Shown in pieces: positions 3,201-60,448 of a stretch of 64,000 bases of DNA. Source of the stretch: Cetorhinus maximus (lineage: Eukaryota); contig NC_135892.1 of the NCBI RefSeq assembly GCF_964194155.1, forward strand, positions 4,402,001 to 4,466,000, read 5' to 3'. The position numbers were made by a program, and so were the translations under genes. The stretch's first letter is position 1. Every line of letters starts with the position of its first letter. The notes beneath the pieces were generated by a model. It was not told where the DNA came from, did not search any database, and saw only the letters and a program-made list of their open reading frames with translations.

Positions 3201-6200
3201 AAAAAAAAATGAGTTCGTGGAACTTAAAATCAATTAATAAATCTGGAATATAAAACTAGTCTCAGCAATGGTGACCATGACAACCATCGCTGATTGTTGC
3301 AAAAGCCCATCTAGTTCACTAATGTCCTTTTGGGAAGAAAATCTGCTGTCTTTACCTGGTCTGGCCTACACGTGACTCCAGACCCACAGCAATGTAGTTG
3401 ACTCTTAACTGCCCCTGAAATGGCCTAGTAATTCCTGGCAGCAATGCCCATATCCCATGGAAGAATAAGAAAAAGTCATCCATACCTGACCTTTTAACCC
3501 TTGTCCTTTAAGTGCCTCAATGTCATCTCTGCTGAGTTTCTGGGACTTGCCATCATCAATTATGTTTCGGTTATCAACACCAGCTTCATTTGTTTCTGGG
3601 AGAATAAAAGTGCACACTGCTTTCACAACAAACAAAACCCACAAGACTCTTTACTTTGTTTAGACTTGGGCCAAATTTAGCCACAACTACTAGGTTTGAA
3701 AGTCTCTTCAAACTGTAAGCATTCCATATGAAATGATTGGCTTGTCTCAACAGTCTTCAATGGGGGAAGAGCCACGACACTCAACCTTCCAGAATTAATT
3801 TAGTACCCAGTCATCATCGCTTTTCAGAGAGAGTTAAGATTCATAGTTAAAGCAGAAATATTGTCCTTCCTCTAACGATGCTCAGTGCCTATACAAAGTG
3901 ACAAGTACACACACAAATATTGTGTTTCCCGACAGGCAAAAAAAACCCATTAAATTTAAACACTGAAGCTTGTACTATTTTCTTAGACATTATTATTTTT
4001 TTTAAAAGCTGTTCAAACTCAGTAGCTATACCTTTAGCAATTAAAAATCTGTAAGTCAAACTACTAAGAGAATTTGGAAACCATCCCTTTATTCCTCCCA
4101 CACCCCACAAAGAATAAATATAAATTACAATTAGTTTCAAGAGCAAATTTTCTTTTACTCCTTGACTAATTTTGGTACATAGTATAGAAATATACACTTT
4201 TTCTTTCCTTTGCAGTTCAGCAAACGGAAGTAGAGAACAATGGTAAAATGTAATGTAGAAAGTTAATTCACTAACTGCGATTGAGATTTCAAGTCAGAAA
4301 TAATTCACTCAATTCTGGGGGTTTACATGCAAAAGGTTTTTAAGTTATATCGAATGAAATGCTGTCTGAATCACTTGGTTATATTCTACCCATGGGGTAC
4401 CGGATGCGTATGAATGACTAAATATAGTCAATGAGGAAAACACTGCCCAAAGAGCCCAAACTGTAATAATCACTGTGCAATATACAGCACAAATAAAAGT
4501 TATTAAATATTACCCCTTAAAAAATTATACAAACTTTACATTTGTCAACTTTGGCAAGCAAGAGTTATCACATCAAACATGCTTTTGAATGTATACAGAC
4601 TGTCTGGTGGAATGACTAACTATAGAATTTGGTCGCTTTATTGGTTAGTAACATTGACATTAAGCTGTCCGTCATGCAATTTGCAGGTTCAGACAGAAAT
4701 ACATGAAGTTCTGACGCTACCTTTGGCAACTTCCTCAATTTTTGCTTTAAGTGGTTGGAGAACTCCTCCATTGGAAACCTCAAAAGTGGTGCCATACTGC
4801 TGTCCAATCACATTGTCCAAGTAAAACCACTGTTTCTCAAAGATGATTTTTCTGGAAAGCAAAGATTGAGATCCATTAAGTTCTAACCAGAAAATTAAAT
4901 ATCATCCGAAGTCATAGACACAATCACTGACTTTTAAAAAAATCATTCATGGGATGTCGGTGTCACTGGCTATGCCTGTGCCCATCCCTAACTGCCCTTG
5001 AGGTGGTGGTGAGCTGCCTTTTTAAACTACAACAGTCCATGTGGTGTAGGTATACCCACAGTGCTGTTAGGGAGGGAGCTCCAGGATTTTGACCTAGCTA
5101 CAGTGAAGGAATGGTGATATATTTCCAAGTCAGGATGGTGTGACACAAAAACAGAAAATGCTGGAAAAACTCAGCAGGTCTAACAGCATCTGTGGAGAGA
5201 AAAACAGAGTTAATGTTTCAATTCCATATGACTCCTCTTCAGAGTGAAAGAGAAGTAAAAATGTGTATAAATTTATACTGTTAAAGGGGGTGGAGCAGGT
5301 GAAGCTGGATAGAAGGCCAGTGCTAGGTGGGGCAAAGGAGATATGGACAAAGATGTCATGAACAAAAGGACAAAGGGGGTGTTAATGGTAGTGGTAAGGG
5401 CTAAAGGAGGTGCTGATAGTGGCATTAAGATAAGAAAGCAGAATGTGATAATAGCTAGACAAGGGTAAGTAGTCTGGAAAGAACAACATGAACAAGTAAC
5501 AGATGGCCCTAGTGGAGATGGGGTGGGGTGGGGAGGGGGGACGGTGGTGGGAAAAAAGATTGAAAATAGTGTAAAAGATGAGGATGAAAATAGTGTAAAA
5601 GGTGAGGATAAAACAATGAATAAATGGAAATAAAAATAAAAGTGTATAAAAAATAAAAATATTGAAAAAAGGGGTGAGGATAGAGGAGAGTTTTCATGGT
5701 CTGAAGTTGTTGAACTTGATGTTCAGTCCAGAAGGCTGTAAAGTGCCTAATCAGAAGATAAGGTGCTATTCCTCCAGTTTGCGATGGGCATCACTGGAAC
5801 ATTGCAGCAGGCCAAAGATGGACATGAGGGCATGACAGCAGGATAGTGTGTTGAAATAGCAAGCAACAGGGAGGTCTGGGTCATGCTTGCAGACAGACCG
5901 AAGGTGTTCCGCAAAGTGGTCACCCAGTCTGCATTTGGTCTCTCCAATGTAGAGGAGACTGCATTGGGGACAGGGAATGCAATAGACCAAATTGAAGGAG
6001 GTGCAAGTGAAGCGCTGTTTCACCTGAAAGGAGTGCTTGGGCCCTTGGATGGTGAAGAGGTAAAGGGACAGTGTTGCACCTTCTGCAATTGCATGGGAAG
6101 GTGCCGTGGGAGGCGTTGGGGGTAATGGAGGAGTGGTCCAGGGTGTCCCAGAGAGAACGGTGCCTTTGCAATGCTGACAGGTGGGGGTGAGGGGAAGATG

Positions 6201-9200
6201 CGTTTGGTGGTGGCATCATGCTGGAGTTGGCAGAAATGGTGGAGGATGATCCTTTGAATACAGAGGCTGGTGGGGTGAAAAGTGAGGACAAGGGGTACCC
6301 TATCATGGTTCTGCAAGTGAGAGGAAGGTGTGAGGGCAGAGGTGCGGGAGATGGGTCGGACATGGTTGAGGACCCTGGCAACCATAGTGGGTGGGGAAAC
6401 CTTGGTTAAAGAAAGCATGTCAGGAGCGCCGTTTTGGAAAGTGGAATCATTGGGACAGATGCGACGGAGGCGAAGGAACTGAAAGAATGGGGCGGAATCC
6501 TTAAAGGAAGCAGGGTGTGAGGAGCTATGGTCAAGGTAACTGCGGGAGTCGGTGGGTTTGTAATGAATATTGGTAGACAGTCTATCACTAGAAATTGAGA
6601 CAGGGAGGTCAAGGAAGGGAAATGTTGGAGATGGACCATGTGAAGATGATAGAGGGGTGGAAACTGAAAGCAAAATTGATAAATTTTTCCAGGTCCAGAA
6701 GAGAGCATGAAGGGGCACTGAAACAGTCATCGATGCACCAAAAAAAAAGAGCTGTGGGAGGGGACCTGAGTAGGACTGGAACAAGGAATGTTCCACATAC
6801 CCCATAAAGAGACAGGCATAACTGGAGCTCATGCAGGTACCCATAGCCACACCTTTTATTTGGAGGAAGAGACACAAGTTTAAGGAGAAATTGTTGAGAC
6901 AGATAAAAAGTTCAGCCAGATGCAGGAGAGTGGCGGAGGATGGGGATTCTTTGGGCCTCTGTTCAAGGGAGAAGCGGAGAGCCCTCAGACCATCCTGGTG
7001 GGAGGTGGAGGTGTAGACGGATTAGGCATCCATGGCGAAGATGCTGTGGTTAGGGCCAGGGAACTGGAAATTGTTGATATGACGTAGGGCAGCAGAGGAA
7101 TCACGGATGTAAGTGGGGAGAGACTGGACAAGAGGCGAGAGAACGGAGTCAAAATATGAAGAAATGAGTTCCGTGGGGCAGGAACAGGCTGACACGATCA
7201 GTCTTCCAGGACAGTCCTGTTTGTGGATTTTGGGGAGGAGGTAGAAGCGGGCTGTCAAGGGTTGATGTATGGCTTGGAGGGGAACTTGCAGGTGGTGGTG
7301 TTCCCATGTGTCTGCTGCCCTTGTCCTTCTAGGTGGTAGTGGTCATAGGTTTAAAAAGTGCTATCTAAGGAGGCTTGGTGAGTTCCTGCCATGCATATTG
7401 TAGATGGTACGGTACACTCTGCCGTCAGTGGTGGAGGGAGTGAGTTTTCATGGATGGGGTGCCAATCAAGCAAGCTGCTTTGCCCTGGATGGTGTCAAGC
7501 TTCTTGAGTGTTGTTGGAGCTGTACTCATCCAGGCAAGTGGGGAGTATTCCATCACACTCCTGACTTGTGCCTTGTAGATGGTGGACAGGCTTTGCGGAA
7601 TCAGGAGGAGAGTTATTCGCCGCAGGATTCCAAGCCTCTGACCTGTTCTTGTAGCCATGGTATTTAAATGGATAGTCTAGTTCAGATTCTGGTCAACGGT
7701 AACCCCCCAGGATGTTGATAGTGGGGGATTCATTGATGGTAATGCTACTGAATGTCAAAGGATGATGGTTAGGTTCTCTCTTGTTGGAGATGATCATTGC
7801 CTGGCATGAATGTTACTTGCCACTTGTCAGCCCAAGCCTGGATATTGTCCAGGTCTTGCTGCATTTGGACATGGACTGCTTCTGTACTTGAAGAGTCACG
7901 AATGGTGAACACTGTGCAATCATCAGTGAACATCCCCACTTCGGACCTTATGATCGAAGGAAGGTCATTATGAAGCAGCTGAAGACGGTTCGGCCGAGGC
8001 CCTAGCCTGAGGAGCTCCTACAGTGATGCCCTGCAACTGAGATGATTGACCTCCAATAACCACAACCATCTTCCTTTGTGCTAGGTATGACTCCAGCCAG
8101 CAGAGAGCTTTCCCCCACCCAATTCCCATCGACTCCAATTTTGCTAGGGTTCCTTGATGCCATACTGGGTCAAATGCTGCCTTAATGTCAAGGGCGGTCA
8201 CTCTCACCTCACCTGGTATGACTTGTACTATCAAACTGTACTTAACTTTATGAGGAAGGCAAAGAACTACAGCTAAAACACCCTGCAATTTCCTGGTTCT
8301 ACTTAGTCTAGAAGAATTCTATGTTCTTAGTCTAACACTACCTACATTATTCAATTTAAACATTTGCACTCCATAGACAATTTCAGCATTTCTTTAGCAT
8401 GTTCCAGATGTTTTGATAGTTTCCAAAGATACAGATACATGGAGACAGAGGATGCAGATGAGTGGGCTGGAACTATAGCGCAAAACACAGGAATGATAGC
8501 TATATAAGTAATGAGGAATATCTACAGAACAAAAAACGGCTGGCCCAGGACAGACAGTGCTCCTGCTCAAGTTTGATGCAGCAAGAAACTTTCAAGTAAC
8601 ACCAGGTGGTCACTGTCTCAGGCTGAACAAAATTGCTCATAACTTCAGCATTCTGTTCACCAGATCTTCTCCATCACAGACTGCCTACTTAGAGCAAGAG
8701 GCCAGTCGGAGGCTGGAGAAAAGCAAGGTGGGCAGGGAGGGGCGTGGGGAAGAAAGGGGCCCGGAGGCTGGAGAAACACGGGTGGTGAGGGCAAAGAGGT
8801 GCCCCTGCAAGGAACATGATATCATTAGTGTTGCCCTCCCCCACCCACTCCGAGTGAGAAAAAAATTCAAATGTGGCCCCTCACGTGAAAAGGTTGGATA
8901 GGGCTAGTCTAGAGGCCTGTGTCTCAGGGTGATGGGTTACTCATTTAAGGGCTGAGGTGGGGAAAATTTTCTTCACAGAAGATTATGAATCTTACGTAGC
9001 AGGTCAGCCAAAGGGATGGGGGCGGCATATGGACTGTCAAATAGCAAGGAGATAAAATAACTAAACAATCATTTTTTAGTGATCTTGGCCAAGGGATGAA
9101 TATTGACCCGGACACAGGGGGAACCTTGCTCTTTAAATAGGGCTAGGGGGCTTTTAATGCCCACCATTGTCACTGACAAGTACAGTACCAGTAATATACA

Positions 9201-11159
9201 GTGAGCAAAATAATGAACAATAACATCACATTATGAACGCGCCTTAGAATTTTAAGACAAACCCAATTTAGATGTTCCACTAATTCTTCTATGTTTACTA
9301 AAAAAAACTGCCACTACTAATACAACTTTAACACAAATGGGCCAAATATTATTTGCAAAATAAGGGCACGGAGCAAGAAGACGAAGTCCCAGGTGTATGA
9401 GTTTTCACAAAGCTACCGAGCATTTTTAAAAAAAAAGCACAAGTGACTTGCACAGCACAGCACCAAAACTTTCCCAGGTTTCAACTTATGAAGTACTATT
9501 AGCAGCCGAGCTAAAAGTTCCACAGGTTTAATGCGGACACATGAGAGCTGCAGACCTTTGAAAATGCTGCTGGTTCAAACAAAAAAAGGCAGTGGATAAA
9601 GTTACAAAAATCATTTAAAAAAAAGCAAGAATATTAATTCTGAGCGGAGTGGAGGGGACTTTGACGCCAATATTGAATGATATCTTTGCTTTTGAAGTAA
9701 ATCTCGTCCAGCTGCATCATTTAAGACTTTGGGTCATAAACGCAATGTGGCAGTGGCTCCATAAATGCTGGACCCCCACCAACCCCACACACAACCCCCC
9801 ACCCCACACACAACCCCCCCACCCCCCCCACACACACCCCCACCCCCCCCACACACACACTCCCACCCTCCCCCCCACACACACTCCCACACACCCACCC
9901 CCCCACCCCACCCACACCCCCCCCACCCACACACACCCCCCCACCCCACCCACACACACACCCCCCCCACCCACACACACACACCCCCCACCCACACACA
10001 CACACCCCCCCACCCACCCACACCTCCCCCCCCCACCCACACACACACACCTCCCCCCCCCACCCACACACACACCTCCCCCCCCACCCACACACACACA
10101 CCTCCCCCCCCCACCCACACACACACCTCCCCCCCCCACCCACACCTCCCCCCCCACCCACACGCACACCTCCCCCCCCACCCACACACCTCCCCCCCCA
10201 CCCACACACCACCCCCCCCCACCCACACACACACACACCACCCCCCCCCCACCCACACACACACACACCACCCCCCCCCACCCACACACACCTCCCCCCA
10301 CCCACACACACACCTCCCCCCCCCACCCACACACACACACCTCCCCCCCCCCACCCACACACACACACCTCCCCCCCCCCACCCACCCACACACACCTCC
10401 CCCCCCCCACCCACACACACACCTCCCCCCCCCACCCACCCACACACACCTCCCCCCCCCACCCACACACCTCCTCCCCCCCCCACCCACCCACACACAC
10501 ACACCTCCCCCCCCCACCCACACACACCTCCCCCCCCCACCCACCCACACCTCCCCCCCCCACCCACCCACACACACACACCTCCCCCCCCCACCCACCC
10601 ACACACACACACCTCCCCCCCCCCACCCACACACACACCTCCCCCCCCCACCCACACACACACCCCCCCCCCACCCACCCACACACCTCCCCCCCCCACC
10701 CACCCACACCTCCCCCCCCCCACCCACACACACACACCTCCCCCCCCACCCACACACACACCTCCCCCCCCCCCACCCACACACACACCTCCCCCCCCCA
10801 CCCACACACACACCTCCCCCCCCCACCCACACACACACCTCCCCCCCCCACCCACACACACACACACACCTCCCCCCCCCACCCACACACACACCTCCCC
10901 CCCCACCCACACACACACACCCCCCCCCACCCACACACACACACACACCCCCCCCCACCCACACACACACACCTCCCCCCCCCACCCACACACACACACA
11001 CACACCCCCCTTGCTGGGGCAGTATCACTGCTGCAGTTACCTTCCCCTGTGCACCTGAACGGCTTTAAACACCTCCTCCCTCTTCAGGACCACATGGTCC
11101 CCCTCGCCGACAGTGTGGGCCCCGCTGCCGGCAGCCAGCACCTCCCCGGGCCCGGACAT
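144..11159 (-). CDS. TRMT6: tRNA (adenine-58-N1)-methyltransferase non-catalytic subunit TRM6, 5' part of gene (coding exons 1-4; continues beyond window start)
   Basis: Spliced exons 11159-11041, 4851-4721, 3595-3486, 235-144 join in frame with GT-AG introns: MSGPGEVLAAGSGAHTVGEGDHVVLKREEVFKAVQVHRGR-KIIFEKQWFYLDNVIGQQYGTTFEV..-ETNEAGVDNRNIIDDGKSQKLSRDDIEALKGQGLKGQ-DIVQHLIENSTTFRDKTGFAQEKYIKKKKK. Matches the Gcd10/TRM6 N-terminus; head-to-head with MCM8 as in other vertebrates. Confidence 0.96.
357..435 (+). mobile_element. tRNA-derived SINE, 5' part (remainder at 3209-3476)
   Basis: A-box-like TGGTGTAGCGG and B-box-like GGTTCAAATC; body resumes after the LINE poly(A) at 3209. Confidence 0.6.
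436..610 (+). mobile_element. tRNA-derived SINE head joined to a LINE body
   Basis: GGCGTAGTGG A-box and GGTTCGAATCC B-box; resembles the head at 357 and the SINE body at 3220-3310. Confidence 0.65.
611..3208 (+). mobile_element. Degenerate non-LTR retrotransposon (CR1/L2-group LINE): endonuclease remnant, reverse transcriptase and 3' tail
   Basis: ORF 1745-2437 has QFGFRQGHS, ALDIKAAFD, GVPQGS and FADD motifs; endonuclease remnants upstream; ends CCCATGAATGAATGAAAAAAAAA; frameshifts and stops. Confidence 0.92.
3209..3476 (+). mobile_element. 3' part of the interrupted SINE, with LINE-like tail
   Basis: Body CCCATCTAGTTCACTAATGTCC...GACTCCAGACCCACAGCAATG; tail GCCCATATCCCATGGAAGAATAAGAAAAAG resembles the LINE 3' end. 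Confidence 0.65.
3486..3595 (-). CDS. TRMT6: TRMT6 coding exon 3
   Basis: cag|..TNEAGVDNRNIIDDGKSQKLSRDDIEALKGQGLKGQ|gtatg; 110 bp. Confidence 0.95.
4721..4851 (-). CDS. TRMT6: TRMT6 coding exon 2
   Basis: cag|A KIIFEKQWFYLDNVIGQQYGTTFEVSNGGVLQPLKAKIEEVAK G|gtag; 131 bp. Confidence 0.95.
4933..5145 (-). mobile_element. 3' end of a CR1/L2-group LINE (same family as 611-3208), split by the Penelope insertion
   Basis: Reverse complement of 2990-3200; continues at about 7262. Confidence 0.8.
5146..7258 (-). mobile_element. Penelope-like retroelement (RT + GIY-YIG endonuclease), 5'-truncated and degenerate
   Basis: TARFYLLPKIHK, QIKGVAMGT, FLDL, TNIHYKPTDS and GIY-YIG NLVYCIPCPQCSLLYIGETKCRLGDHFAEH across frameshifted ORFs; 3' UTR with hammerhead-like motif near 5208-5245. 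Confidence 0.92.
7262..8215 (-). mobile_element. CR1/L2-group LINE RT fragment (upstream continuation of 4933-5145)
   Basis: VTALDIKAAFD.VWHQG and SVMEYSPLAWMS motifs in ORFs 7968-8288 and 7425-7658. Confidence 0.88.
9772..11010. repeat. C/A-rich minisatellite (unit about CCTCCCCCCCCACCCACACACACA) in TRMT6 intron 1
   Basis: About 1.2 kb with almost no G on the + strand; source of the spurious P/H/T and G/V/C ORFs. Confidence 0.97.
11041..11159 (-). CDS. TRMT6: TRMT6 coding exon 1
   Basis: gcggcgATG at 11159; MSGPGEVLAAGSGAHTVGEGDHVVLKREEVFKAVQVHRG AG|gtaac; 119 bp, phase matches exon 2. Confidence 0.93.
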
Positions 11160-11800
11160 CGCCGCCGCCGCCGCGCTCCTCTTCCCCTCCCCCTTCTTGG
11201 CCTGGCGCCTTCAATCCATCCCCCACCTCTCTGGACCGAAACCAGCGTAAACACACGGGAAGGCTGGTCGAGGTTGACTCGGGCGATGTTCAGTGGCGCG
11301 GCCGCCGGAAAACTCGCGTCCTTCAACAGCCAGCAGAGCGCGCGGACACGCTACCCGCGGCCGCTCTGCAGCCAGCACGCGGCCCCGGAAACGGAAAGAG
11401 AAGCGGCCAGTACCGCGCGCGCATGCGCGTCAATGCGGTTCCACACCCCCCCCTCCCGCCGGTCCGCCCACTCCATACGGTACGCATGCGCGTCAACCGG
11501 GATCCACACCTCAATGCATGCGCTACAATCAGGCCCCGCTCGGGCGGGCATGAGCCCATCAGGCCCCACCCACGTGTTGCGCGTCACCCAAGCTCCGCCC
11601 AGACGCGCGTAATCAGCTCCCGCCCATTCCAACCGTCTTCCTCTCTGCCACTGTACGCATGCGCCTCGCTCATGCTCCAGCCTAGCTGGCGGGTGCGAGA
11701 AGTTGGTTTGAGCCATCCGTGTGGCTTCAGTCTGTCCAACCGGTGACCGGCTCAAACGCAGCGCCCGGAAGTAGTGGAAAGGAGTGGCGGGGTTGAGGAA
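11160..11800. promoter_or_regulatory. CpG-island bidirectional promoter of TRMT6/MCM8
   Basis: High CpG density between divergent genes; NRF1-type GCGCATGCGC at 11419-11428 with near copies at about 11483, 11515 and 11655; ETS CCGGAAGT at 11765-11772; E2F-like TGGCGGG/TCCCGCC. Confidence 0.85.
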
Positions 11801-11855
11801 TTTGAGAGAGAAGAAACCAGCCTGTTGCAGATAGTCAGGATAAGACCCCGTATCT

Positions 11856-12385
11856 CCCCCCCCCCACCCAGTGCAGTGTCACTGTTTCCAGCCTCCCCTC
11901 CCCCACCCAGTGCAGGGTCACTGTTTCCAGCCTCCCCTCCCCCACCCAGTGCAGTGTCACTGTTTCCAGCCTCCCCTCCCCCACCCAGTGCAGGGTCACT
12001 GTTTCCAGCCTCCCCTCCCCCACCCAGTGCAGGGTCACTGTTTCCAGCCTCCCCTCCCCCACCCAGTGCAGGGTCACTGTTTCCAGCCTCCCCTCCCCCA
12101 CCCAGTGCAGTGTCACTGTTTCCAGCCTCCCCTCCCCCACCCAGTGCAGTGTCACTGTTTCCAGCCTCCCCTCCCCCACCTAGTGCAGTGTCACTGTTTC
12201 CAGCCTCCCCTCCCCCACCCAGTGCAGTGTCACTGTTTCCAGCCTCCCCTCCCCCACCCAGTGCAGGCACTGTTTCCAGCCTCCCCTCCCCCCCCCAGTG
12301 CAGTGTCACTGTTTCCAGCCTCCCCTCCCCCACCCAGTGCAGTGTCACTGTTCGTGCCTCCCCTCCCCAATTCAGTGCAGTGACA
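11856..12385. repeat. 39-bp minisatellite, about 13 copies (CAGTGCAGTGTCACTGTTTCCAGCCTCCCCTCCCCCACC)
   Basis: Near-identical tandem units, giving 13-aa periodic ORFs in several frames. Confidence 0.97.
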
Positions 12386-12490
12386 TCTATGCCAGCCTCC
12401 TGTCCCCCATCCAGCGTAGTGTCATTAGCAACAGCCTCACCTTCCCCTCCTCCCACCCCATCTCCACTTTGGCCAAGACAATAACCTGCA

Positions 12491-46203
<33,713 letters not shown>

Positions 46204-46239
46204 CTGCAGATTAATCAAGTTCTACAGCAACTGCCTTTT

Positions 46240-46341
46240 TGGATAAAAGCAAAATGCTGCGGATGCTGGAAATCTAGAACAAAAACACCTGGGAAAACTC
46301 AGCAGGTCTGACAGCATCTGCGGAGAGGGATACAGTTGACA
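46240..46341 (-). mobile_element. Short Penelope-tail insertion in the MCM8 3' UTR, 10-bp TSD
   Basis: AACTGCCTTT at 46229-46238 and 46342-46351; GGAAAACTCAGCAGGTCTGACAGCATCTG core. Confidence 0.8.
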
Positions 46342-46620
46342 AACTGCCTTTGTAGACTTGTTTTCCTTTTGAGGGGGTTAGCACAAAGGCAAGGAGAGCT
46401 AAAAAAAAAATAACATCTACCTTTTGTTGATATTGTTATGTCTTAAATATTTCAAGTTGCAAATCAGTAAAATAGTATGGAGACAATTGAAATATTTAAT
46501 TACTTATACTAGATTTGAGCAAAATCTTAATTTTAGCTTTAAAAAATAGCCAGCCCATTCTTTCAAGATACATACAAAAATGCTTAATTGATTTCATGAT
46601 GTTTAGAAAGTGTTGATAGA

Positions 46621-46626
46621 AATAAA
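46621..46626 (+). terminator. Candidate MCM8 polyadenylation signal AATAAA
   Basis: First canonical hexamer I found after the stop codon, in an AT-rich 3' UTR; not verified. Confidence 0.4.
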
Positions 46627-48109
46627 ATTGCGCGTCCTCATCATTTCCCTTATCCACAAAAATGTCACTTACTGTTCAACAAGAAAATCGAGCTAGAGTA
46701 GAATCTTGATATCAGTTGCCATAGAAAGGTGGGCTTGAACCTACATTCAGCGTACTCCACGTAACTAGTTCTGGTGTTAGCTGTATTTTTGAGGAAAGTA
46801 GGTAAAATAGTTTGGAAACATCAGAAGGCAGAGAAGCGTTGTACTGTATTGCACCTGGTACGGCGTATGCCACTTGGACGAGTGAAGAATAAAAAGCAGC
46901 AAGGTAATCTCCTTGGGCGTTGCACAGGGGCTCAAAACCAGGTCATGTGGGGTTAGAGTAGGATTAATTGGACCAGAGTGTGCAGACACAATTTAATTGC
47001 CTTTTTAAAATTATATAATACTGTTCTTATTTTATATTTGCCACTATAAATTTCTGTAACTTAAATTTATAATGGAAACTCTCTAGTTAAACTTGCTATA
47101 CTGTAGTTGCACCCTGCCCACTGGTGACACTGCAGCACCTTTGCTAGAGGGAAGATATAAGTTGTGTGTCAGTTTTACATCAGTTGCCATCATAAATGCC
47201 AACATAAGAATTTATAATGGGAGGAAGTTGACTTAAGTCTGACCAGTTGAAAGAGTTTTAATAACCACATGTGAGTCAGAAGAAACCCATTTGAACTTTG
47301 TTGATGTGTATTTGCTGTCAGGTGTCTGAAATTCAAGCAATAATATCTTGACTGCCAGGGTGCTGCGTACCTCAGTGAGGTACTTGTGAGGTACGTGAGC
47401 TTTATCTGTGCTCTACCACAGAGTAGGAATAGAATGTGAAGTGTTGTTTCTGTGGATTTACGGCATTAGTTTGGAGAAGGATCTGCCCAGACAGCCTTCA
47501 CAAATGCGTAGTGAGAAGACAGAATTTTTCAAAAACAAATCTTTTCCAATTTAAAAACATTGCTGTAAGTATTAAATGGATCATAGTACATTTTGTTTTT
47601 ACTTTTATAGGTATTTATGTCATCAAGTAATTGTTCCCTGAACTCTTTGTAGAAATCTTACTTCAAATGTTAGCAGTGTATTTTCATTTGTACAAAAGCA
47701 GCTTTTAGTTCAGAAAATACTATGTTCTGTAAATCTGTTATAACCTACAAAGTATAAAAAGGTGTTTCTGTCCACCTAATAGAATGTATTTTGAAAAATG
47801 TAGTGAACAAATGCTATTAAAATTATATATTTTTAAAATATAATGTCCATACCTTTTTGTTTGGACTGATATCTTTATTAAGACTTGGATTTCTTGATTC
47901 ATTTTTATTTTGTCACAGTCTATGCATTTGTGAGAGAATATCACCCAAATGTTGAACTGAGTACAGAAATGAAAGAGCATTGAAAGGTTTGGTATTCAAG
48001 TGCCCTTCTATATATGTGAGCCAGCATTACTGCAATGTATAGTTCACTGGAGAACATAGGAGATTCTGAAAAAAGCAGCACTGTCTGTCAGGCCAATGCA
48101 TGTTAAGTT

Positions 48110-48510
48110 TAAAAATAAAAAAAGACTTGTATTTATATAGCGCTTTTCACAACCAACGGACGTCTTAAAGTGTAGTGACTGTTGTAATGTAGGAATTGCA
48201 GTGGCTAATTTGCACTCTGCAAACTTCCACAAACAACAGTGTAATAATAACCAGAATATTTTTTTGTGATGTTGATTGACGGATAAATATTGGCCAGGAC
48301 ACAGAATAACTCAAATAAAAGCAGTGCTGGAAAAACTCAGGTCTGGCAGCATCTGTGGAGAGAGAAACAGAGTTAACATTGAGTCAAGTATGACTCTTCT
48401 TGGGAACTGAATTCGAGTCATCTTCTATTGGGGGGTGTCATCTTTCAGATGAGATGTGGGTGTATAAGATCCCATGGCACTATTTTGAAGATAAGTAGGG
48501 GAGTTATCCC
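48110..48510 (-). mobile_element. SINE with L2-like tail, interrupted by a Penelope-tail copy (about 48312-48412)
   Basis: CTTGTATTTATATAGCGCTTTTCAC end; similar to 60730-61010 and 37590-37640. Confidence 0.6.
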
Positions 48511-49109
48511 TGGTTATAAAAGCAAAATACTGCGGATGCTGGAAATATAAAATAAAAACAAAGTGTTGGAAAAACTCAGCAGGTCTGGCAGCATTTATGG
48601 AAATAGAGAGTTAACATTGAGTCGAATATGACTTCTTCGGAACTGAGATTTTAATACTTTTACTTTTGTAGTTATTTATGCCTTTAGTTGTTCACTGAAT
48701 TCTTTGTAGAAATTTTACTTCAGATGTTAGTGTATTATCATTTATACAAAAATAGCTTTTAAATCTGTTATAATCCACAAAGTATGGAAAGGACTGTCCT
48801 GCTAATAGAGAATATACTTTGAAAAATGCAATGAACAGATGTTAATAAAATTCAGCATTCAACAGAATGAATGGGATCCTTCCAGAGACATAACTAGTTT
48901 AAATCCAATTTTCAAATTTGGTTCATCCTAAACACCTGGTGATCCAAAATAAAGTACAAAATGCTCCCCATGTTGCCACTGCATTTTTTTCAGCTGTGGG
49001 GAGGAGGGGGTGAATATAGGAAAAAGTTAACCTGGAATATTACTTAACATTGAACTTTAGGAATAGAACTTGAGGACACAGGCTTAAATAAATACAGGTT
49101 AATTTTAGA

Positions 49110-49640
49110 TATAAAACCAGAAAAAGCTGGAAATACTCCTGTCAGGCACCATAAGTCTCTCCACAGATGTTGTCTGACCTGAGTATTTCCTGTAATATTT
49201 CCAGAGTCCACAGCATTTTCCTTTTGTAAAGGTACTTTTAGGACTGATGGCAGGAAATTCAATGCAGAAAGAATGATCAACATGTGGAGACCACCTACAA
49301 ATGAGAACAATGGAGGCGAAAACTCTGCCATTATTAAAGAAACAAGCAGGTACAATACTGAAGTGGGCTTAGCATCTCACTGGGTGAAATTAATGAAGAC
49401 GGGCTTCCTAATCTAGTGAATTTTGCAGAACCATTTTTGAACCCAAATAAAAACAAAAACAAAATAATGCTGGAAATACTCCGCAGGTTAGGCAGCATTT
49501 GTGGAGAGAAACAGAGTTAACACTTCACATTAGGACCATTCATCGGAACCAAAGGCCATTGACCTGAAGCTTTAAGTTTCGCTCCATAGATGCTGTCTGA
49601 CCTGCTGAGTACAGTATTTTGGGTTTTCAGATTTCAAAGT
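49110..49640. mobile_element. Two decayed Penelope-derived fold-backs (about 49110-49225 and 49445-49640)
   Basis: GCTGGAAATACTCC..CAGG..GGCAGCA arms facing CCACAGATG.TG.CTGACCTG..GAGTA arms. Confidence 0.65.
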
Positions 49641-49837
49641 ATTTTGCTTCTGTTAGTTTTTATTCCAATACAGTTAGTTGCTTGGTAGTACAAAACTTGA
49701 ATATTGCTGAAAAGATAGACATGTTGCTGAAGCTTTTTGTCTTGCGCTCATCAGGACAAATGCAAGAATGCCAAATTTCAAACTATCACAATTTATACAA
49801 CAGGAGAAAAGGGTTTTGATGGGTTGGCAAGTTGACT

Positions 49838-50890: not shown

Positions 50891-51219
50891 CGGGTTGGAG
50901 TTGTCGCCCTGGAGAAAGCAATAGTTTGTCAGAGTGACACTTGCCAAGCCATCAGCACCCTTTTCTCCTGCAGCATAAATCAATGTGACGTTTGGAAAAT
51001 TGACATTCTTGTGTTTGTCCTGATGAGTGTAAGGGGAGGGGGAGGGGGAGGAGGGGAGGAAAGAAACTTGTGCCACGTGGCTGTTTTTGTTTTAAAGTGA
51101 TAACCAATATAGTTTCGAGATGAAGCTTTCCTCCACCCTCATAAGCAACCTCCCCTCCCCTCCCTTTGGAGCTTCTACACCTGCGACTTTAAGAGTTGTT
51201 TAAAAATAAAAGTCGGCTA

Positions 51220-51870
51220 AAAGTGTGTGGCCTGCGCCTTTAAGCAGGTGTCGTTCGGGCCTCTTTCTAACCCCCGCCCCCCGCCCTCGAGCCCTGACCT
51301 CGCCGGGGAAATGATGGCTTCTCAGGGCAGCTGCCGACTGAGGCGGGCCCAGGGCAGCAGCAGCAGCGGCGGCCGGGGCTGCTCGCACTGAGCGTCAGGC
51401 CTCGGGGCCGCCCATCCCCACTCCCCGGGCCATGTTCCTGTGGAAAAGCCGCTGGGCGATCGGGCGGGCGGTGAGCCGACCGGTTAAAATGGAGCCGGGG
51501 CCCCGGGCCGGGTGGCCGCCGCCGCCGCCCTGCTGGGCCCACACGCGGCTGCTGAGCTCCGGCGGGGGCCCTCCCCACCCCGGGGCCTGGACCGGGGCCG
51601 GGAGGAGGCGCCTGGGCCCCGGACCCGGCCCCGGCCCCGCCTGGTGGTCCTCCCCTCACGCCCGAGCCCGGCGGCGGGAGGCCGCCCCAGGCCGCGGGCC
51701 CGCCTGCAGCAGCCGCGCCTGCGGAGCCGGCAAAGCGGCCGCCAAGAAGGCAGCCCCGGAGCCCTACCCGTACCGGAGGGTCGGAGACAAGGAGCAGGCG
51801 GAGGAGAGGGAGAGGGCGGCGGCCGCGGCGGCCGGGTCTCCGGAGCTGGTAAGGAGGGAGCGCGGCCCCT
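51220..51870 (+). promoter_or_regulatory. CpG island / promoter and first exon of CRLS1
   Basis: Very GC- and CpG-rich; GC boxes CCCCGCCCC at about 51272-51287. Confidence 0.8.
51432..51848 (+). CDS. CRLS1: CRLS1 coding exon 1 (mitochondrial-targeting-like N-terminus)
   Basis: gcc[22 protein letters not shown]... Arg/Ala-rich ...GSPEL|gtaagg; 139 codons. Confidence 0.85.
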
Positions 51871-54800
51871 CAGTGACCCTCACACTCACTCAGTCTCCCT
51901 CACTCCCTCACACTCACTCTCCCTCACTCTCACACTCACTCTCCCTCACTCTCCCTCACACTCACTCACACTCACTCTCCCTCACACTCCCTCACACTCC
52001 CTCATTCTCCCTCATGACATTGACTGACTTTGTAACTCAGGTCGTCCAATATTCATTCAAACTCGGGCACTAACTCTTTGCTCTTGTTCCTCTCACTCCA
52101 TCACCCTCTCACTCCATCACCCTCTCACTCCATCACCCTCTCACTCCATCACCCTCTCACTCCATCACCCTCTCACTCCATCACCCTCTCACTCCATCAC
52201 CCTCTCACTCAAACACCCTCTCACTCCATCACCCTCTCACTCCATCACCCTCTCACTCAAACACCCTCTCACTCCATCACCCTCTCACTCCATCACCCTC
52301 TCACTCCATCATGTTCACTCCATCACCCTCTCACTCCATCACCCTCTCACTCTATCACCCTCTCACTCCATCACCCTCTCACTCCATCATGTTCACTCCA
52401 TCACCCTCTCACTCCATCATGTTCACTCCATCACCCTCTCACTCCATCATGTTCACTCCATCACCCTCTCACTCCATCACCCTCTCACTCCATCACCCTC
52501 TCACTCCATCACCCTCTCACTCCATCACCCTCTCACTCCATCATGTTCACTCCATCACCCTCTCACTCCATCATGTTCACTCCATCACCCTCTCACTCCA
52601 TCACCCTCTCACTCCATCATGTTCACTCCATCACCCTCTCACTCCATGTTCACTCCATCACCCTCTCACTCCATCATGTTCACTCCATCACCCTCTCACT
52701 CCATCATGTTCACTCCATCACCCTCTCACTCCATCACCCTCTCACTCCATCACCCTCTCACTCCATCACCCTCTCACTCCATCACCCTCTCACTCCATCA
52801 CCCTCTCACTCCATCACCCTCTCACTCCATCACCCTCTCACTCCATCATGTTCACTCCATCACCCTCTCACTCCATCATGTTCACTCCATCACCCTCTCA
52901 CTCCATCATGTTCACTCCATCACCCTCTCACTCCATCATGTTCACTCCATCACCCTCTCACTCCATCATGTTCACTCCATCATGTTCACTCCATCACCCT
53001 CTCACTCCATCACCCTCTCACTGCATCACCCTCTCACTCCATCATGTTCGCTCAATCGCCCTCTCACTCCATCATGTTCGCTCAATCGCCCTCTCACTCC
53101 ATCATGTTCGCTCAATCGCCCTCTCACTCCATCATGTTCGCTCAATCGCCCTCTCACTCCATCATGTTCGCTCAATCGCCCTCTCACTCAATCATGTTCG
53201 CTCAATCGCCCTCTCACTCCATCATGTTCGCTCAATCGCCCTCTCACTCCATGTTCACTCAGGCTCACCCTTTCACTCAATCACTCTCTCACTGAGGTAC
53301 ACCCACTCAGTCAATCACTCTCACTCAGGCACACACTCTCACTCAGGCACACCCTCTCACTCAGGCACACCCTCTCACTCAGTCAATCACTCTCTCTCAG
53401 GCACACCCTCTCACTCAATCACTCTCTCTCATGCCCTATCACTCACACTCAACCACTCTCACACATATATACATAATCACTCACTCAGGCACACCCTCTC
53501 ATTTCACTCAATCGTGTTCAATCAGGCATAGCCTCTCATTCATACACATTCAATCACTTACTAAATCACTCTCCCTCACACACACTCAGTCACACAATTA
53601 TATTCAATCAGGCACAGCCTCTCATACACACTCAATCACTCACACTCAGTCACTCGCTCAATTATTCGCACTCATTAAACACTGAGTTACACACACTCAT
53701 ACATAGTCACTCCCACACATTCTATCGTACTCTCTCACACCCTCTTGCGCTCACACACTCCGTCACGTTTGCACATGCTCCCTCCCCTTCTCACTCTCAT
53801 ACACACACCCTTAACCTTACATACTACCCGTCTTACTCAGACTCACGTACACCCACTTGCATTCACACATGCCCTCTCACTCTCTCATACTCAATCACAT
53901 ACTCGCACACCCAATGATACCGCATCTCTCGCGTGCGTGCGCACACACTCTTTCGCCTCATCACTCCCTCCTGTTCACTCTCTCTTGGTTGCCCCGTTAC
54001 TCTTAGTCATTGACTCACTTCCACATATTCCTTGGGATTGGATTTTTCTCCAGCGCTTTATCCTAGAGTCACTTAGAGATACACGTACTGCAGTTGTGGA
54101 CTTTGCTGCTGCAACATTACTGCCTCATTTTTGGCATGGGCTGCACCAGAGCTGATGTTTTCAAAACATTGTGGTTCATATTATTAGTGATTAGGCTTGG
54201 GGCCAGTGGTTAGGGTTAGGAACGTCTCATAAATTTATCCTATTATTAAATGTGAGCAGTCATTTTATGATGACCTTTGAAATTTATTAGTGATTTTTAG
54301 GGTATGGCAGAATGTGCTCTGATGTTTCTGGAAGAGCTGAAGACGTGGTTAGTCAATCTTCCATGGATAATCTCAGATTTTGTTATAGATACGGCTGTGT
54401 GCTGTATGATAAATCTTCTCTAGCTGGCTCTTCACACCTCTTTAGTGGAGGTGCAATTGTCAATTTACACCTGAAATTGCTGGAGCGGTGTTTTGGGCTG
54501 TGCATGCAGTTTGTTGTGCTTTTCAGCTCCCTGTTCATATTGATTTCTGTTGGTACCATGGAAATCATCATTCATGAGGTCAGTGACATATCAGAGACCT
54601 TGTGGGCAATGTGCCTGGTTGCATACCCTGCAACTACTAGCACTGTTTAATGGTGAGAACAGTGCTATAAGTCAAATTGAGGAGTTGCAGTAAATGAACT
54701 TCTTCTGAAACCAAACCAGATCAACTAAATAAACTTCTTAAAAATGCTGGAAAAATTAACCTCTTGTGTCTGCTTGTCCCTGTTGTCAGTGCTTCCCCGT

Positions 54801-56246
54801 TGCTTTGAGTTTTACATGTCATAGACAGTTCACATACTACATGTGTGATAACCTGACTGTTGATGAAAGTGGCAGGTTCCTCACGTGGAGCCTTCAGCAG
54901 CATGTGGGTCCCACCAACGATCTGCTGCACACTGGGGAAGCCAGCAATCCAGTGGAAGTTGGTACGCTGGCTATTTAATGCAGTTGGCTACACTGTGGAA
55001 GGTTCTAGGCTGCAGATCCTCACAGCTCCCTGATAAATGTCACAGAGGCCTTCGGCCACGGGTGCCTCAAGCGACACATCAATTCCAAGTTGTAATTGGC
55101 AGCATAATAAGTAGTAATTAGGAACGGGGGACTTCTCAGTGGATTTCTTATTACAATTCTTTTGCCTTCTTTACATGTAAAAATAGATTGGGGGTGGGGG
55201 GGGTGCCCTGAGATGCTAATAGTGCTCTGGGTGACAAAAACTGGCAAGAATAAACTTTCAAATTTGAGAAATTTAGGAAAAAGTACTTTTGGAACAATTT
55301 CCTGACTGCTGACATCAGGCTCCAAAGTTTTAAATGTTCCTTTATTGGCCTATCAGGCTGAGAGTCATGTGTTGGCCATTGGCTGCATCAATACCTAGGT
55401 GCTCCATGACTTTGTTTTTCAGTTGCACTGGCTGTGGCAGAGGTAGCAGCATAAATCCCACAAATTGGAGATTGGTACTAACTGCAATGGGAAAACCAAG
55501 TGCTGATACTAGAATTTTATCAGCTTTGGCGAGGCTGACAATGACAGATTTAGATGAGAAAAGATGGGAGGAGGCTCGAGTGGAGCATAAATGCTGGCGT
55601 AGATTGGTTGGGTTGAACGACCTGTTTCTGTGCGGTATAACCTATCCCAGTAGCGGATGATGAAAACTGATGACATTATCTCAGTTACTCCGCTTTGTAA
55701 ATGATTTAACAACAGTGCACACCAGCATTGATCAGCAATGTCCCAGGAATTTCAAACCCACATTTATGTGTCGCTCATACCTTGGATGCAAAGTTCTTCC
55801 GCCTGACTGACGTATTTCATATTCATGACGGAGGAGCAAAGCAGAACTCAAACTCTGAGCAATGAGGCAAATCTACCATTAGAAAAAACAAAAACAGAAT
55901 TACCTGGAAAAACTCAGCAGGTCTGGCAGCATCGGCGGAGAAGAAAAGAGTTGACGTTTCGAGTCCTCATGACCCTTCAGCAGAACTGAGTATAGTTAGG
56001 AGAGGGGTGAAATATAAGCTGGTTTAAGGTTGGGGGGGAGGGGGAGGGGGGTGGTTGTAGGGACAAGCAAGCAGTGATAGGAGCAGATAATCAAAAGATG
56101 TCACAGACAAAAGGAACAAAGGGGTGTTGAAGGTGGTGATATTATCTAAGATACCTTCAACACCCCTTTGTTCCTTTTGTCTGTGACATCTTTTGATTAT
56201 CTGCTCCTATCACTGCTTGCTTGTCCCCACAACCACACCCACCCCC

Positions 56247-56288
<42 letters not shown>

Positions 56289-57995
56289 CCCCCCCCCCCC
56301 CCCACCTTAAACCAGCTTATATTTCACCCCTCTCCTAACTATACTCAGTTCTGCTGAAGGGTCATGAGGACTCGAAATGTCAACTCTTTTCTTCTCCGCC
56401 GATGCTGCCAGACCTGCTGAGTTTTTCCAGGTAATTCTGTTTTTGTTCTGGATTTCCAGCATCCGCAGTAGTTTTTCGTTTTTAAATCTACCATTAGATT
56501 GGGTTCAGAACCAATCAAACATGTGGTAGGGAACCAAAGTCACATGTAAGACTGTCTGAGAGGCAGGTTCCCTTCACTGACTGACACTAGTGAATCAATT
56601 GGGTTTTTAACAACATAAGGTATACCATAAATATATTCATTACTTTTCATGGGCGGATTTGCTTGGCCAAAGTACCATAACCGCTTGGTTATTATGATCT
56701 TGGTTGACATTTAAAGCCTAGTGTAATATCTGGTGTTTGTTGCTTTTGAAGTCGAGGAAGATTGTTTGGAGAGACATAATGGAACCATTGACTGAAGCAT
56801 TTCAAATTCATCTTCAGGTTAGGTTTGAATTCATTTGGAAAAACAAGCTAAAGATTTTCCATTGAGAAAATAAGTACATTTTTTACAGAAATAGCAATCC
56901 TTTTGGGTTTCTGAGTTTGAACGTTAGAAGCAACAGGCTGTGTTAATTACCCATTTGTTTGTCAAGTTCTCTGGCTATCTCTGAAGTAAAATTAAACTGT
57001 TCATAAAATAATATCCTATAACAGCAACTTGCATTTATGCAGTGTCTTTACCTTGGAAAAAAACTTCAAAGGAGCATAACTGGGGGAAAAAGCCTGCCAC
57101 AGAAGAAGGTAGTAGGATATTAAGATAGGTGACGAGAAGCTAGGCCAAAGAGATTTTAAGGAGGGGCTTAATCGAGGAAAGAGGCAGAAGTTTAAGGAGG
57201 ACATTTCAGGGCTTAAAGCCTAGACAAGCTAATGGCACAGCCACTAATGGTGGGGGTGAAAGGATTGGGGCTGCACAAGAGACCCGAGTTAGAGGAAGGC
57301 AGAATTCTTGGAGGATTGTAGGGCCAGAGGTTAGATATAGGAAAGGGTGAGACTGTGGAGGGATTTGAACATATACAACTTAGTTTGGAAATCAGAAATC
57401 GTAATAAAATAAGAGGAAGCAGAAACTCATTACTTGCAGGAAATTTGTGCAGATGACACAGACTCACGCTCGTTTATTTCTTCATTAAAGTTATATAAAT
57501 GTAAGTTCATGCAGCCTCTCCCTGTAGCTGACAGTGATGCCCCTGGGGCAAATACGAACTTCAAGCCTTGTCTTTTGAGACAAGCTGAGGGCTTCAAGTG
57601 AAGCTCTTGATGAAGATGTTCAAAAGGTACAAAAGACAATTTTATAGGGAGGTTTAACTATGTTACTGCAAAATGTGAAATAGTTAAACGATTTTGTTAT
57701 ATCACAAACCTTTTTTTGTGAGGACTTAGTGGGAAAGATGTGACAGATATCTGCCCCTGCGCACTCTCTTCTACCCCTAGAAAAAAAATGAGGTTTTCTT
57801 ACTGGTGATCAGGAATATGTTTATATGAAATAATTAATTTCCTATCTTTCTTTATAGTATGAAAATCCATGGACGATTCCAAACTTACTATGTATGGCAA
57901 GGATTGGCTTGTCACCATATTTGGGCTACCTGATTGTGGAAGAGGAATTCAATTTAGCTCTGGGTCTTTTTACTTTGGCAGGAATTACTGATCTG
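51432..57995 (+). CDS. CRLS1: Cardiolipin synthase (CMP-forming), 5' part of gene (exons 1-2; continues beyond window end)
   Basis: Exons 51432-51848 and 57858-57995 join in phase 0; [11 protein letters not shown]...LAGITDL marks the start of the CDP-alcohol phosphatidyltransferase domain; lies downstream of MCM8 as in other vertebrates. Confidence 0.93.
51870..53990. repeat. Compound C/T/A-rich minisatellite in CRLS1 intron 1 (16-mer CACTCCATCACCCTCT, 14-mer CACTCCATCATGTT, 30-mer higher-order unit, degenerate flanks)
   Basis: Tandem units visible at 52090-53260; source of the S/H/P/T ORFs. Confidence 0.96.
55949..55987 (-). ncRNA. Minimal type-I hammerhead ribozyme-like motif (variant core)
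   Basis: - strand AGUU-CUGCUGA-A-GGGUC(AUGAG)GACUC-GAAA-CG-UC-AACU: helix I AGUU/AACU, helix II, palindromic ACGU helix III and GUC site; core has C where consensus has A6. Confidence 0.65.
56347..56385 (+). ncRNA. Hammerhead ribozyme-like motif, sense copy in CRLS1 intron 1
   Basis: AGTT-CTGCTGA-A-GGGTC-ATGAG-GACTC-GAAA-TG-TC-AACT. Confidence 0.55.
57015..57400 (-). mobile_element. L2-like 3' fragment
   Basis: ACAGCAACTTGCATTTATG end, purine-rich body similar to 17030-17580. Confidence 0.55.
57858..57995 (+). CDS. CRLS1: CRLS1 coding exon 2
   Basis: tag|[46 protein letters not shown]|gtgag; 138 bp. Confidence 0.96.
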
Positions 57996-59984
57996 GTGAG
58001 TAATTGCCTCTATCACAATTGAATATATTTTGTCGAATTTACACTTTTTAAGAGCATACCTTTCAAATTTGCTAATGAAGCATATAATTAGCTTTTAAAT
58101 GCATGCTTCTGTATGTTGTTGTACCACATCCATTGTGTACAAAATTTTGACATTTGAGTATTATGTTGAAAGACAATTGCCTGGATTTTGCAATTTAATG
58201 ATGTTGGAATTCAGTGTTTGCCATCATTACAAATGTAACACTAGCAGCCACTTTTGATGTTCATACATGTCCAGTTATGGAAATCCAGATGTTGCTGTCA
58301 AGGATTCTTTGGTTGTCCATAAAAGTTGCTTAAGCAATTACTTGAGTTGATGCGGACTTTAACTTTTAAGCTGATAGCCTTGCTGTAAAGACCTTTGAAA
58401 TAATTGTGCCTTGTTGAATGAGGTGTAACTAGCATGTTTAATGGTGTATTAAATTCATAATTACTGTCGAATGATCCCTCTGGCCCTGAGAAACTCATTT
58501 CATATTTGTCAAATATCTCCATTACGATAAGTTCCACACTTGTATCTTTTTTAGAGTTTGTTTATGATATTTCAGCTTCTAATTTAACCCATGTGTATGT
58601 CCCAATTTTTTTTTTTTGCTATCTGTAAAATGATTAAAAAGAGAAGGACAATTGGCTATTTCCTGCTTTGCTGTCTATGAGGCTACCTCGAAATGATTGG
58701 CTGTTCAGCCTGCTTGATGACATCATTTCTGGATGCTCGTGGTCTCCATAAGCTGAAGCAGTTGGAAGTAATCTTGGGAAAGGAGAAATTCACTCCACTG
58801 AGATCACTAGACCTTTGTGGGCAGCTTTCTTCGAGGACAAGCACTGTCTCTTTGCCACTGAATGCAAAATCTGGGCTAGTTACTAATGGAAATATCAACT
58901 TTGGTATAATAGTTAACACACTGTAAAATGTATTTTCAAAGGTTGTTTTTTAAAGTTGTGTTGGATATTCTGAAGAAAATGCTCCCTTGTACTGTAACTT
59001 CTGTAAAGAGGAACTTGGGGATTCAGTAAGTTTAATTTCATCATTAAGCTCATCTAGCATGTTGACACTAATATCCTGTAGGATAAATAATCACACAATA
59101 TAATTTATTTTGATATATCGCTAATAGGTTTCTTGTATGTTTTTAATTCCGATCAAATTACTTCTGCCACTATTGATGATCAAGCAGCCAGTATTATGCA
59201 GTTTGGAATGCTGTTCCTTCTACAATCCAAGTTTAAAAAGGCAAAATTCAGTTTTTCCACAGTTTAAAGAGACATTGCCATTGTAATGTGACCATACATA
59301 TCAAAGTTTCACATGTTCATATTGTGTTTTATTGTAAGCCTAACTGTTTAATTAATTTTTAAAAATAAAATAACATCAGACGAACCATGAACAAGTTTCC
59401 TATTTTGGTGTATAAAATGGGAGCTAGTAATTTGCTGTTTAACTATGATTTGTGAACTGCAGATGTTCAAATTATAATGAAAATTCCCTTTTGTGCCTGT
59501 GGTTAAAAAGAGTACAACTAAACAAAAATAGGTCAGTTTTGAATTTGAGCAAGGTGTGAACTTGGAGCAGGCATTATAGGAAATAGTGGAATCAATCAGT
59601 TCATTCTTTCAGTAATTTCAGGTCCATCTTATCCATGGAAAAATCCAGGTTAGTTTGATACCTACCACTCTAATAATGTTGTAGCGCATTATGAGATTGT
59701 AAAATTTAAGAAGTAAACAAGTGTCTACCTCCTGTCATCGGGACATTTCATAATCTCAAAAAATATAAATATACATTAAATTCATGAGGCTTCTTTTATA
59801 CTTTTTTCACGATTGAACCAGTAGGAACATTTTTTTGTTGTTGCCTAATGTAAGTGAATTTAGATAACTTCTTGAATCTGAATTGTATTTGGGAAATTTC
59901 AGTTCTGTCCTCAGAATGATTTTAGTAGCAGGATTTGTAACTTTGTATGTAAGACTATATACAAAGTACAGAGAAGCCTGTTTA

Positions 59985-60240
59985 TAAAAGCAGAATACTG
60001 CAGATGCTGGAGATATGAAATAAAAACAGCAAGTGCTGGAAAAACTCCAAAGTTTAGCAGCATCTGTGGAGCGCGAGAGAGACTGAGTTAATGTCTTGAG
60101 TCTAATATGACTCTTCTTCAGAACGTTTTGAAGTTGAAGTTCTGAAGAAGAGTCATGTTAGACTCAAACATTAACTCTCTCTCTCTCACTCTACAGCTGC
60201 TGCCAGACCTGCAGAGTTTTTCCAGCATTTTCAGTTTCTA
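59985..60240. mobile_element. Older Penelope-derived fold-back with decayed CUGAAGA hammerhead motifs in both arms
   Basis: GAGTC-TAATAT-GACTCTTCTTCAGAAC facing GTTCTGAAGAAGAGTC-ATGTTA-GACTC. Confidence 0.85.
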
Positions 60241-60448
60241 TATTAAACAAGCACTATTGCTATAGAAGGATGCTGGATATAACTAAACCAGGCTGTAGCC
60301 ATTTGTCAAATTACCGCCTGACCAGAGTTAATGAACTGTCTTTTAGGAATTGCTAAATGTAAAACATGTCATTGTGTTCATTGGGTTTTTAAAGTATAAA
60401 ATCAGTGCATTTTAACAAAGTGTCTGATTGATCCATTCCATGAATGGA

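Follow-up and report, generated by a model that had tools for sequence, protein, structure and literature searches.

Fold-back and single-arm insertions around MCM8 and CRLS1 in Cetorhinus maximus: probable truncated copies of a Neptune-type Penelope-like element

The locus and its insertions

The stretch analysed here (the window) comprises 64,000 nucleotides of the shark Cetorhinus maximus, positions 4,402,001 to 4,466,000 of contig NC_135892.1 (assembly GCF_964194155.1, forward strand). In it lie the coding exons of MCM8 (start at 12491, stop codon at 46201-46203), an exon of the cardiolipin synthase gene CRLS1 (about 57859-57996) and, on the minus strand at 5146-7262, the decayed remnant of a Penelope-like element (PLE), while copies of one terminal module are scattered around them as short insertions, either as single arms or as inverted pairs of arms (fold-backs). 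An MCM8 exon in the window shares 92-94% identity with named shark proteins. An initial annotation, made from the sequence alone, had placed the module at 13 positions, at all of which it is present, and had counted seven fold-backs and five single arms, all of which were recovered. With an nhmmer profile built from six window arms, 20 arms were detected at E<=0.002, the best E in the reversed window, which served as control, being 0.37; by motif search, self-BLAST and nhmmer, these 20 arms are divided among the seven fold-backs, the five single arms and the element at 5146, whose 3' end supplies one. Tandem head-to-tail units are absent among the 20 window arms.

The two arms of all seven fold-backs are arranged head-to-head, with the 3' ends of the element pointing outward. 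The fold-backs measure 122-600 bp and have seven different centres, and most insertion units correspond to the last 75-330 nt of the element and contain no open reading frame (ORF). The potential to form double-stranded RNA hairpins, as claimed in the initial annotation, is borne out for all seven, which fold as hairpins with z from -4.0 to -39.3 relative to dinucleotide shuffles, and the longest perfect helices in the three young copies are 47, 65 and 144 bp. No unusual fold was found for the single arms (z -0.36 to +1.43 in nine of nine tested). The Rfam microRNA matches to the hairpins are of the generic hairpin type and below gathering. The extension that had been seen on only one arm is a 36-nt tail (56448-56483, plus strand, in the 55884 copy), which is carried by one arm in six of the seven fold-backs, with 22850 ambiguous, and by three of the six unpaired ends.

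Exact target site duplications (TSDs) flank five of the 12 short insertions, namely those at 21768, 42890 and 45356 (12 bp each), 46239 (10 bp) and 55884 (15 bp), although an error of 1-3 bp is possible in these lengths wherever the TSD runs into T-rich ends of the element. For these five, the proposed range of 10-15 bp holds. The TSD sequences are mutually unrelated and 58-75% AT.

The youngest and longest fold-back (55884-56483; tail on the right; TSD 55869-55883/56484-56498) is located in intron 1 of CRLS1, and its arms show 244 matches and four mismatches to each other. A CT microsatellite and C run (56250-56305) has expanded, by about 47 nt, only in its right arm. The young fold-back at 42890-43100 (tail on the left; TSD 42878-42889/43101-43112) turns within helix II of a hammerhead motif and sits, within an MCM8 intron, in the ORF of a different, older PLE whose frame continues across the duplicated TSD codons TGQY. 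This host PLE (42019-43700, minus strand) is without the Cys linker described below and is Penelope/Poseidon-like by motif. The third young fold-back (45356-45594; tail on the left; TSD 45344-45355/45595-45606) turns at an initiator (Inr)-like site in an MCM8 intron, and the splice donor of the penultimate MCM8 exon is doubled in its TSD. Judged from the sequence, splicing from the second donor (45599) would insert 251 nt that include a stop at 45580-45582, so that the winged-helix domain would be truncated.

Four fold-backs are old. The one at 22850-23096 (MCM8 intron; tail on the left arm) and the one at 59981-60243 (tail on the left), which lies 3' of CRLS1 exon 2 and is probably intronic, both turn at the Inr-like site, the latter with a short partial duplication, and no TSD was found at either. 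Those at 49108-49229 (short; tail on the right; turn 3' of the hammerhead) and 49447-49655 (decayed tail on the right; left arm reaching the Inr-like site) are downstream of the MCM8 stop. Consequently, the seeding of introns that had been suggested applies to five of the seven fold-backs, but neither to these two nor to the single arm at 46239. The arms of a pair differ by one to four mismatches in young copies and by 16/87, 11/63, 12/101 and 4/24 in old ones, and insertion has therefore continued over a long time.

Among the single arms, the one at 21768-21842 (plus strand, 75 nt; TSD 21756-21767/21843-21854) is young and tail-less, and the one at 14049-14190 (minus strand) is old, with a tail, no TSD found and an uncertain 5' end; both lie in MCM8 introns. 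The arm at 46239-46341 (minus strand, 103 nt, with tail; TSD 46229-46238/46342-46351) is located antisense in the 3' untranslated region (UTR) of MCM8, 36 nt after the stop codon, and probably belongs to the mature mRNA. Further downstream, the old arms at 48308-48410 (tail-less) and 48514-48646 (with tail), both on the minus strand, end at the Inr-like site. The latter is adjoined by a local duplication (47597-47824 / 48658-48852, 72% identity).

The class of the parent element

The remnant at 5146-7262, about 2.1 kb in length, is a 5'-truncated PLE that retains the core and thumb of the reverse transcriptase (RT), a decayed Cys linker, a C-terminal GIY-YIG part and a 3' UTR ending in a tail-less module, and it is inserted in a fragment of a long interspersed nuclear element (LINE) with a decayed overlap of about 10 bp. 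It shares 40-52% identity (tblastn) with RT plus GIY-YIG proteins that have DKG and YIDD motifs, the best PLE protein match coming from bamboo shark, and its GIY-YIG part shares 37-47% (tblastn) with the C-termini of homologues matching PF01541; the window's own PLE fragments alone give no match in a Pfam search. A CX2-5CxxC linker precedes the matched GIY-YIG motif in 23 of the 30 homologues, the other seven being unmatched by the motif pattern. This linker marks Neptune and Nematis (PMC8557442), and the vertebrate PLE clades are described as Neptune and Poseidon (bioRxiv 10.64898/2026.07.22.740005). The linker motif, by which the assignment was made and which is common to Nematis, points to the Neptune type for this endonuclease-positive (EN+) PLE.

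The longest young arm aligns over about 250 nt with the 3' UTR of the remnant, and within the module the remnant and the young arms are about 80% identical, with 77 matches and 19 mismatches. The earlier description of the module as the 3' end of a coding Penelope element is therefore right as to the 3' end, but the element is not coding, since it is 5'-truncated, interrupted by stops and frameshifts and devoid of the catalytic YIDD. By sequence comparison, the 5146 copy is the same kind of element, from a dead older subfamily, and the young copies do not descend from it. When the module was compared by blastx with the 30 PLE homologues to look for an ORF start, nothing significant emerged, and the window holds no partial-tandem full-length copy with 5' and 3' pseudo-long terminal repeats (pLTRs).

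Evidence from sequencing reads

Reads and contigs from four of the 24 listed runs were compared with 56306-56905, that is, the sense arm and right flank of the 55884 copy, at likeness 85; the junction data are the best 15 of 143 joints and the loose-end data 23 of 1,014 entries. In the raw run X21, a capture library that gives a floor and not a copy number, 53,198 of 12,177,498 reads (0.44%) match the stretch, nearly all on the arm, and the peak depth is 40,494 versus about 0.5 in the unique flank. As a floor, the abundance is estimated at roughly one arm per 60 kb. In the same run, a depth of about 200 is seen over 56550-56620, where the right flank contains a short fragment of a different repeat.

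Two fixed 3' ends, 36 nt apart, delimit the tail among the loose ends listed, one behind 56447 (6,413 reads, agreement 0.38) and the other behind 56483 (4,115 reads), and both recur in reads of three organisms. The top opposite-strand joints in raw reads, among those listed, are 56349/56351 (15 reads), 56347/56348 (14), 56393/56401 (14) and 56346/56349 (12). Each of them accounts for no more than 0.1% of the local depth (15 reads at a depth of about 15,000 in the best case), and therefore there is no master junction. An artefact of the capture library was ruled out for three of the four, which also occur in contigs of other runs. In addition, contigs of two related organisms, B and C, match the right flank of 55884 at about 95% and start exactly at 56484, the first base of the TSD, being preceded by 321 and 270 letters, respectively, that are unlike the window.

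The hot spot of 5' ends and the hammerhead motif

The 5' ends and junctions concentrate in a hot spot at 56317-56350 (plus strand), which contains the TATA-like 8-mer TTATATTT (56317) and, 30 nt after it, the Inr-like TCAGTT with its A at 56347; the same position also resembles an AG/T splice acceptor. Nine of the 19 non-coding arms, four of the seven window fold-backs and, among the joints listed, three of the four top raw-read joints end or fall within about 5 nt of 56347, and organisms B and C have loose 5' ends listed before this position (44 and 45 contigs, agreement 0.37-0.38). In the 5146 copy, a TATA-like 7-mer (5277-5271) and an Inr-like TCACT (A at 5245) are found 32 nt apart on the minus strand (5245-5277), directly before the hammerhead core. 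The loose-end consensus of a third subfamily (1,502 reads) keeps the TATA-like 8-mer at the same spacing, with a diverged middle. The TATA box and the Inr each have a consensus, with a characteristic spacing between them. The pair found here suggests a putative pLTR transcription start, and a TATA plus Inr-like pair has likewise been described in Adineta pLTRs (PMC3846280).

At 56346-56386 (plus strand) lies a minimal type I hammerhead motif in which core position 6 is a C. Such minimal motifs of metazoan PLEs were described by Cervera and de la Pena 2014 (PMC4209133), and the shark motif shares with them the short helix I, the extra base after position 9, the G10.1-C11.1 pair and the palindromic 15.2-16.2, but differs in the C (or U in reads) at position 6 of the young subfamily. 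Three arms match the minimal-hammerhead descriptor with C at position 6, as against none in 30 shuffles, whereas the canonical descriptor gives no full match in the window and no hammerhead family is present among its 26 Rfam matches. The older arms have a canonical first box and decay elsewhere. Helix II is 91.8% paired, with two-sided change in three of five pairs, for which the statistics are weak, and the 54% pairing of helix I comes from a misregistered alignment and is uninformative. At position 6 (56354), about half of the X21 reads have T, as does about 90% of the contig depth in organisms B and C; the young subfamilies thus seem to have lost A6, and A6C has low activity in a phage hammerhead (PMC3088659). 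In a fold-back, moreover, the sole sense copy of the hammerhead is paired to the other arm. The ribozyme motifs that had been reported are therefore real as relics, but cleavage is unlikely, because the motif is either an A6 variant or decayed, because minimal motifs need dimers and because the sense copy is locked in a hairpin. To judge from these features, the hammerheads are probably silent.

Interpretation and alternatives

Taken together, the insertions are very probably dead-on-arrival, severely 5'-truncated copies of endonuclease-positive Neptune-type PLEs. [quoted passage not shown]

The following course of events may be proposed. The RT-GIY-YIG protein would nick the two target strands 10-15 bp apart, and reverse transcription would start inside the element RNA at either of two sites, yielding copies with or without a tail. 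A single arm would result from one short cDNA, and a fold-back bearing its tail on one arm from two cDNAs, one per nick, joined at their 3' ends. At the TATA/Inr-like position, 101 or 137 nt away from the start sites, many cDNAs would end, and the chances are about even that this stop reflects run-off of the RT at the 5' end of an RNA started in the pLTR. The hairpins would be by-products of these events and the hammerhead a passenger. More tentatively, the arms could be 'strong-stop'-like cDNAs, initiated by the RT within the 5' pLTR and completed by run-off at the capped end, a TATA/Inr start immediately before the hammerhead; a fold-back would then be a pair of them primed from both nicks, one per start site. 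In vitro, PAc (Poseidon of Anolis) cleaves and extends both strands and has two internal RT starts that delimit a tail, and a dimer was predicted (Frangieh 2024, PMC11167929).

Several observations weigh against this account. The in vitro support comes by analogy from an element of the Poseidon clade, and the 64,000-nt window lacks an intact element from which the young subfamily could derive. In the search that yielded the five exact TSDs, the remaining seven short insertions, all older, have at most six exact bases, and the loss is taken as an effect of age. One tail per fold-back is only a modest excess over chance (P about 0.06). The orthologous 55884 sites in the two related species are apparently empty, with the right flank as the only flank matched. 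Finally, each of the top joints has 10-13 read starts at a single-copy depth of about 0.5 and is therefore shared by several loci, and in organism C a contig joint reaches a depth of 499.6 versus 28.5 for single-copy sequence (17x). The question raised with the initial annotation, whether each junction is unique, thus has a mixed answer, in that no junction dominates but some recur, and limited re-amplification of some junctions may have occurred.

A less probable course retains the identity of the element and lets the cDNA prime itself (snap-back) on one antisense template, followed by a staggered endonuclease resolution that leaves the tail at one end. It was proposed in published work (Arkhipova 2013, PMC3846280; Craig 2021, PMC8557442), and both the near-perfect palindromic centres (45356; joints 56347/56348) and the private variants common to the two arms of one fold-back are consistent with it. 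However, non-templated bases or a partly duplicated sequence occur at the centres of 42890, 45356 and 59981, the longer arm may be either of the two, and priming in vitro took place on both strands at two internal sites (PMC11167929). A simple snap-back of a tail-first cDNA is disfavoured because in three of the four informative fold-backs it is the tail-less arm that contributes the unpaired centre.

The hot spot at 56347-56349 might instead be the acceptor of a pLTR intron, so that the cDNAs would derive from spliced RNA, which we consider rather doubtful. A pyrimidine tract and an AG stand directly before helix I of the hammerhead, and in D. virilis Penelope the 5' end of helix I is where the intron has been mapped to end (PMC4209133). 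Spliced templates, however, should place a shared first exon before 56349, whereas heterogeneity is seen among the loose ends listed before 56347, and the young arm, the 5146 copy and the third subfamily consensus all have the TATA-like motif 30-32 nt upstream.

Much less likely is a non-autonomous palindromic family, in which a master hairpin would be transcribed and the PLE protein would mobilise it again in trans, leaving many loci with one junction. The four recurrent joints, with their 12-15 reads, would fit such a family, as would the occurrence of the same joints in contigs of more than one species and the overrepresented joint of organism C. Against it, the seven window centres all differ, each top joint is a minute part of the depth, the arms carry locus-specific variants of several subfamilies, and the adjacent variants 56346/49, 56347/48 and 56349/51 indicate a positional hot spot and not a master. 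Virtually no weight is left for true MITEs moved by a DNA transposase, which the insertions resemble as short, hairpin-forming, inverted and interspersed repeats of high copy number with flanking TSDs, but from which they depart in their variable TSDs, in termini made asymmetric by a tail on one side, in single arms that have TSDs of their own and in the retroelement origin of the whole arm; a fixed short TSD and a fixed size with symmetric terminal inverted repeats were looked for in the window, and neither was found.

Comparison with known systems

The fold-back architecture is already published for PLEs, and the shark hairpins are not a new mobile element. The complex insertion units of EN+ PLEs (Craig 2021, PMC8557442; Arkhipova 2013, PMC3846280; Schostak 2008, PMC2377424) are described as 5'-truncated, with an adjacent inverted, 5'-truncated copy placed head-to-head, a 30-40 bp tail at one end, variable TSDs and palindromic junctions, all of which recur here. 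Unlike them, the shark units are mostly restricted to the last 75-330 nt, have no ORF, are extremely numerous and have junctions clustered at one site. PAc shares the two fixed 3' ends or RT start sites that delimit a tail, the AT-rich targets and the upstream hammerhead, but the shark element has the Cys linker of Neptune/Nematis, and the text of PMC11167929, as far as available, derives neither fold-backs nor a 5'-end hot spot.

Dual hammerhead motifs 100-700 bp apart on opposite strands, as well as single motifs from truncated PLEs, are mentioned in PMC4209133. The non-LTR retrozymes, reported in one chondrichthyan (bioRxiv 10.64898/2026.07.22.740005), are likewise non-coding, hammerhead-bearing and derived from PLE pLTRs, but they form head-to-tail tandems, in contrast to the single or head-to-head shark arms with TSDs. 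A literature search, with most subscription papers and supplements outside its scope, gave no account of this shark family or of the start-site hot spot.

Other features of the window

Long low-complexity tandem arrays (9772-11010, 11854-12451 and 51876-53660) adjoin the CpG-rich starts of MCM8 and CRLS1. On the minus strand, 24252-24315 matches the HDV-like (hepatitis delta virus-like), CPEB3-family ribozyme with 33.7 bits versus a gathering threshold of 35 (E 1.5e-07), head-to-head with a 5'-truncated 3' fragment of a LINE (24308-24899, AAG tail); it is possibly an inverted LINE 5' end.

Implications

For genome annotation, the results mean that PLE debris scores as microRNA precursors, although below gathering, and resembles MITEs. 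Inverted Alu repeats are known to attract ADAR or Dicer. By analogy, the perfect helices of 47-144 bp in the MCM8 and CRLS1 pre-mRNA could do the same. The hot spot of 5' ends and junctions is a feature without a published counterpart in the literature searched, and an abundant family with such a hot spot offers a cheap natural data set on how the inverted ends and tails of PLEs are formed. If the 'strong-stop' reading is true, shark genomes would contain natural reaction products in the tens of thousands, from which PLE integration could be read out and the pLTR promoter mapped.

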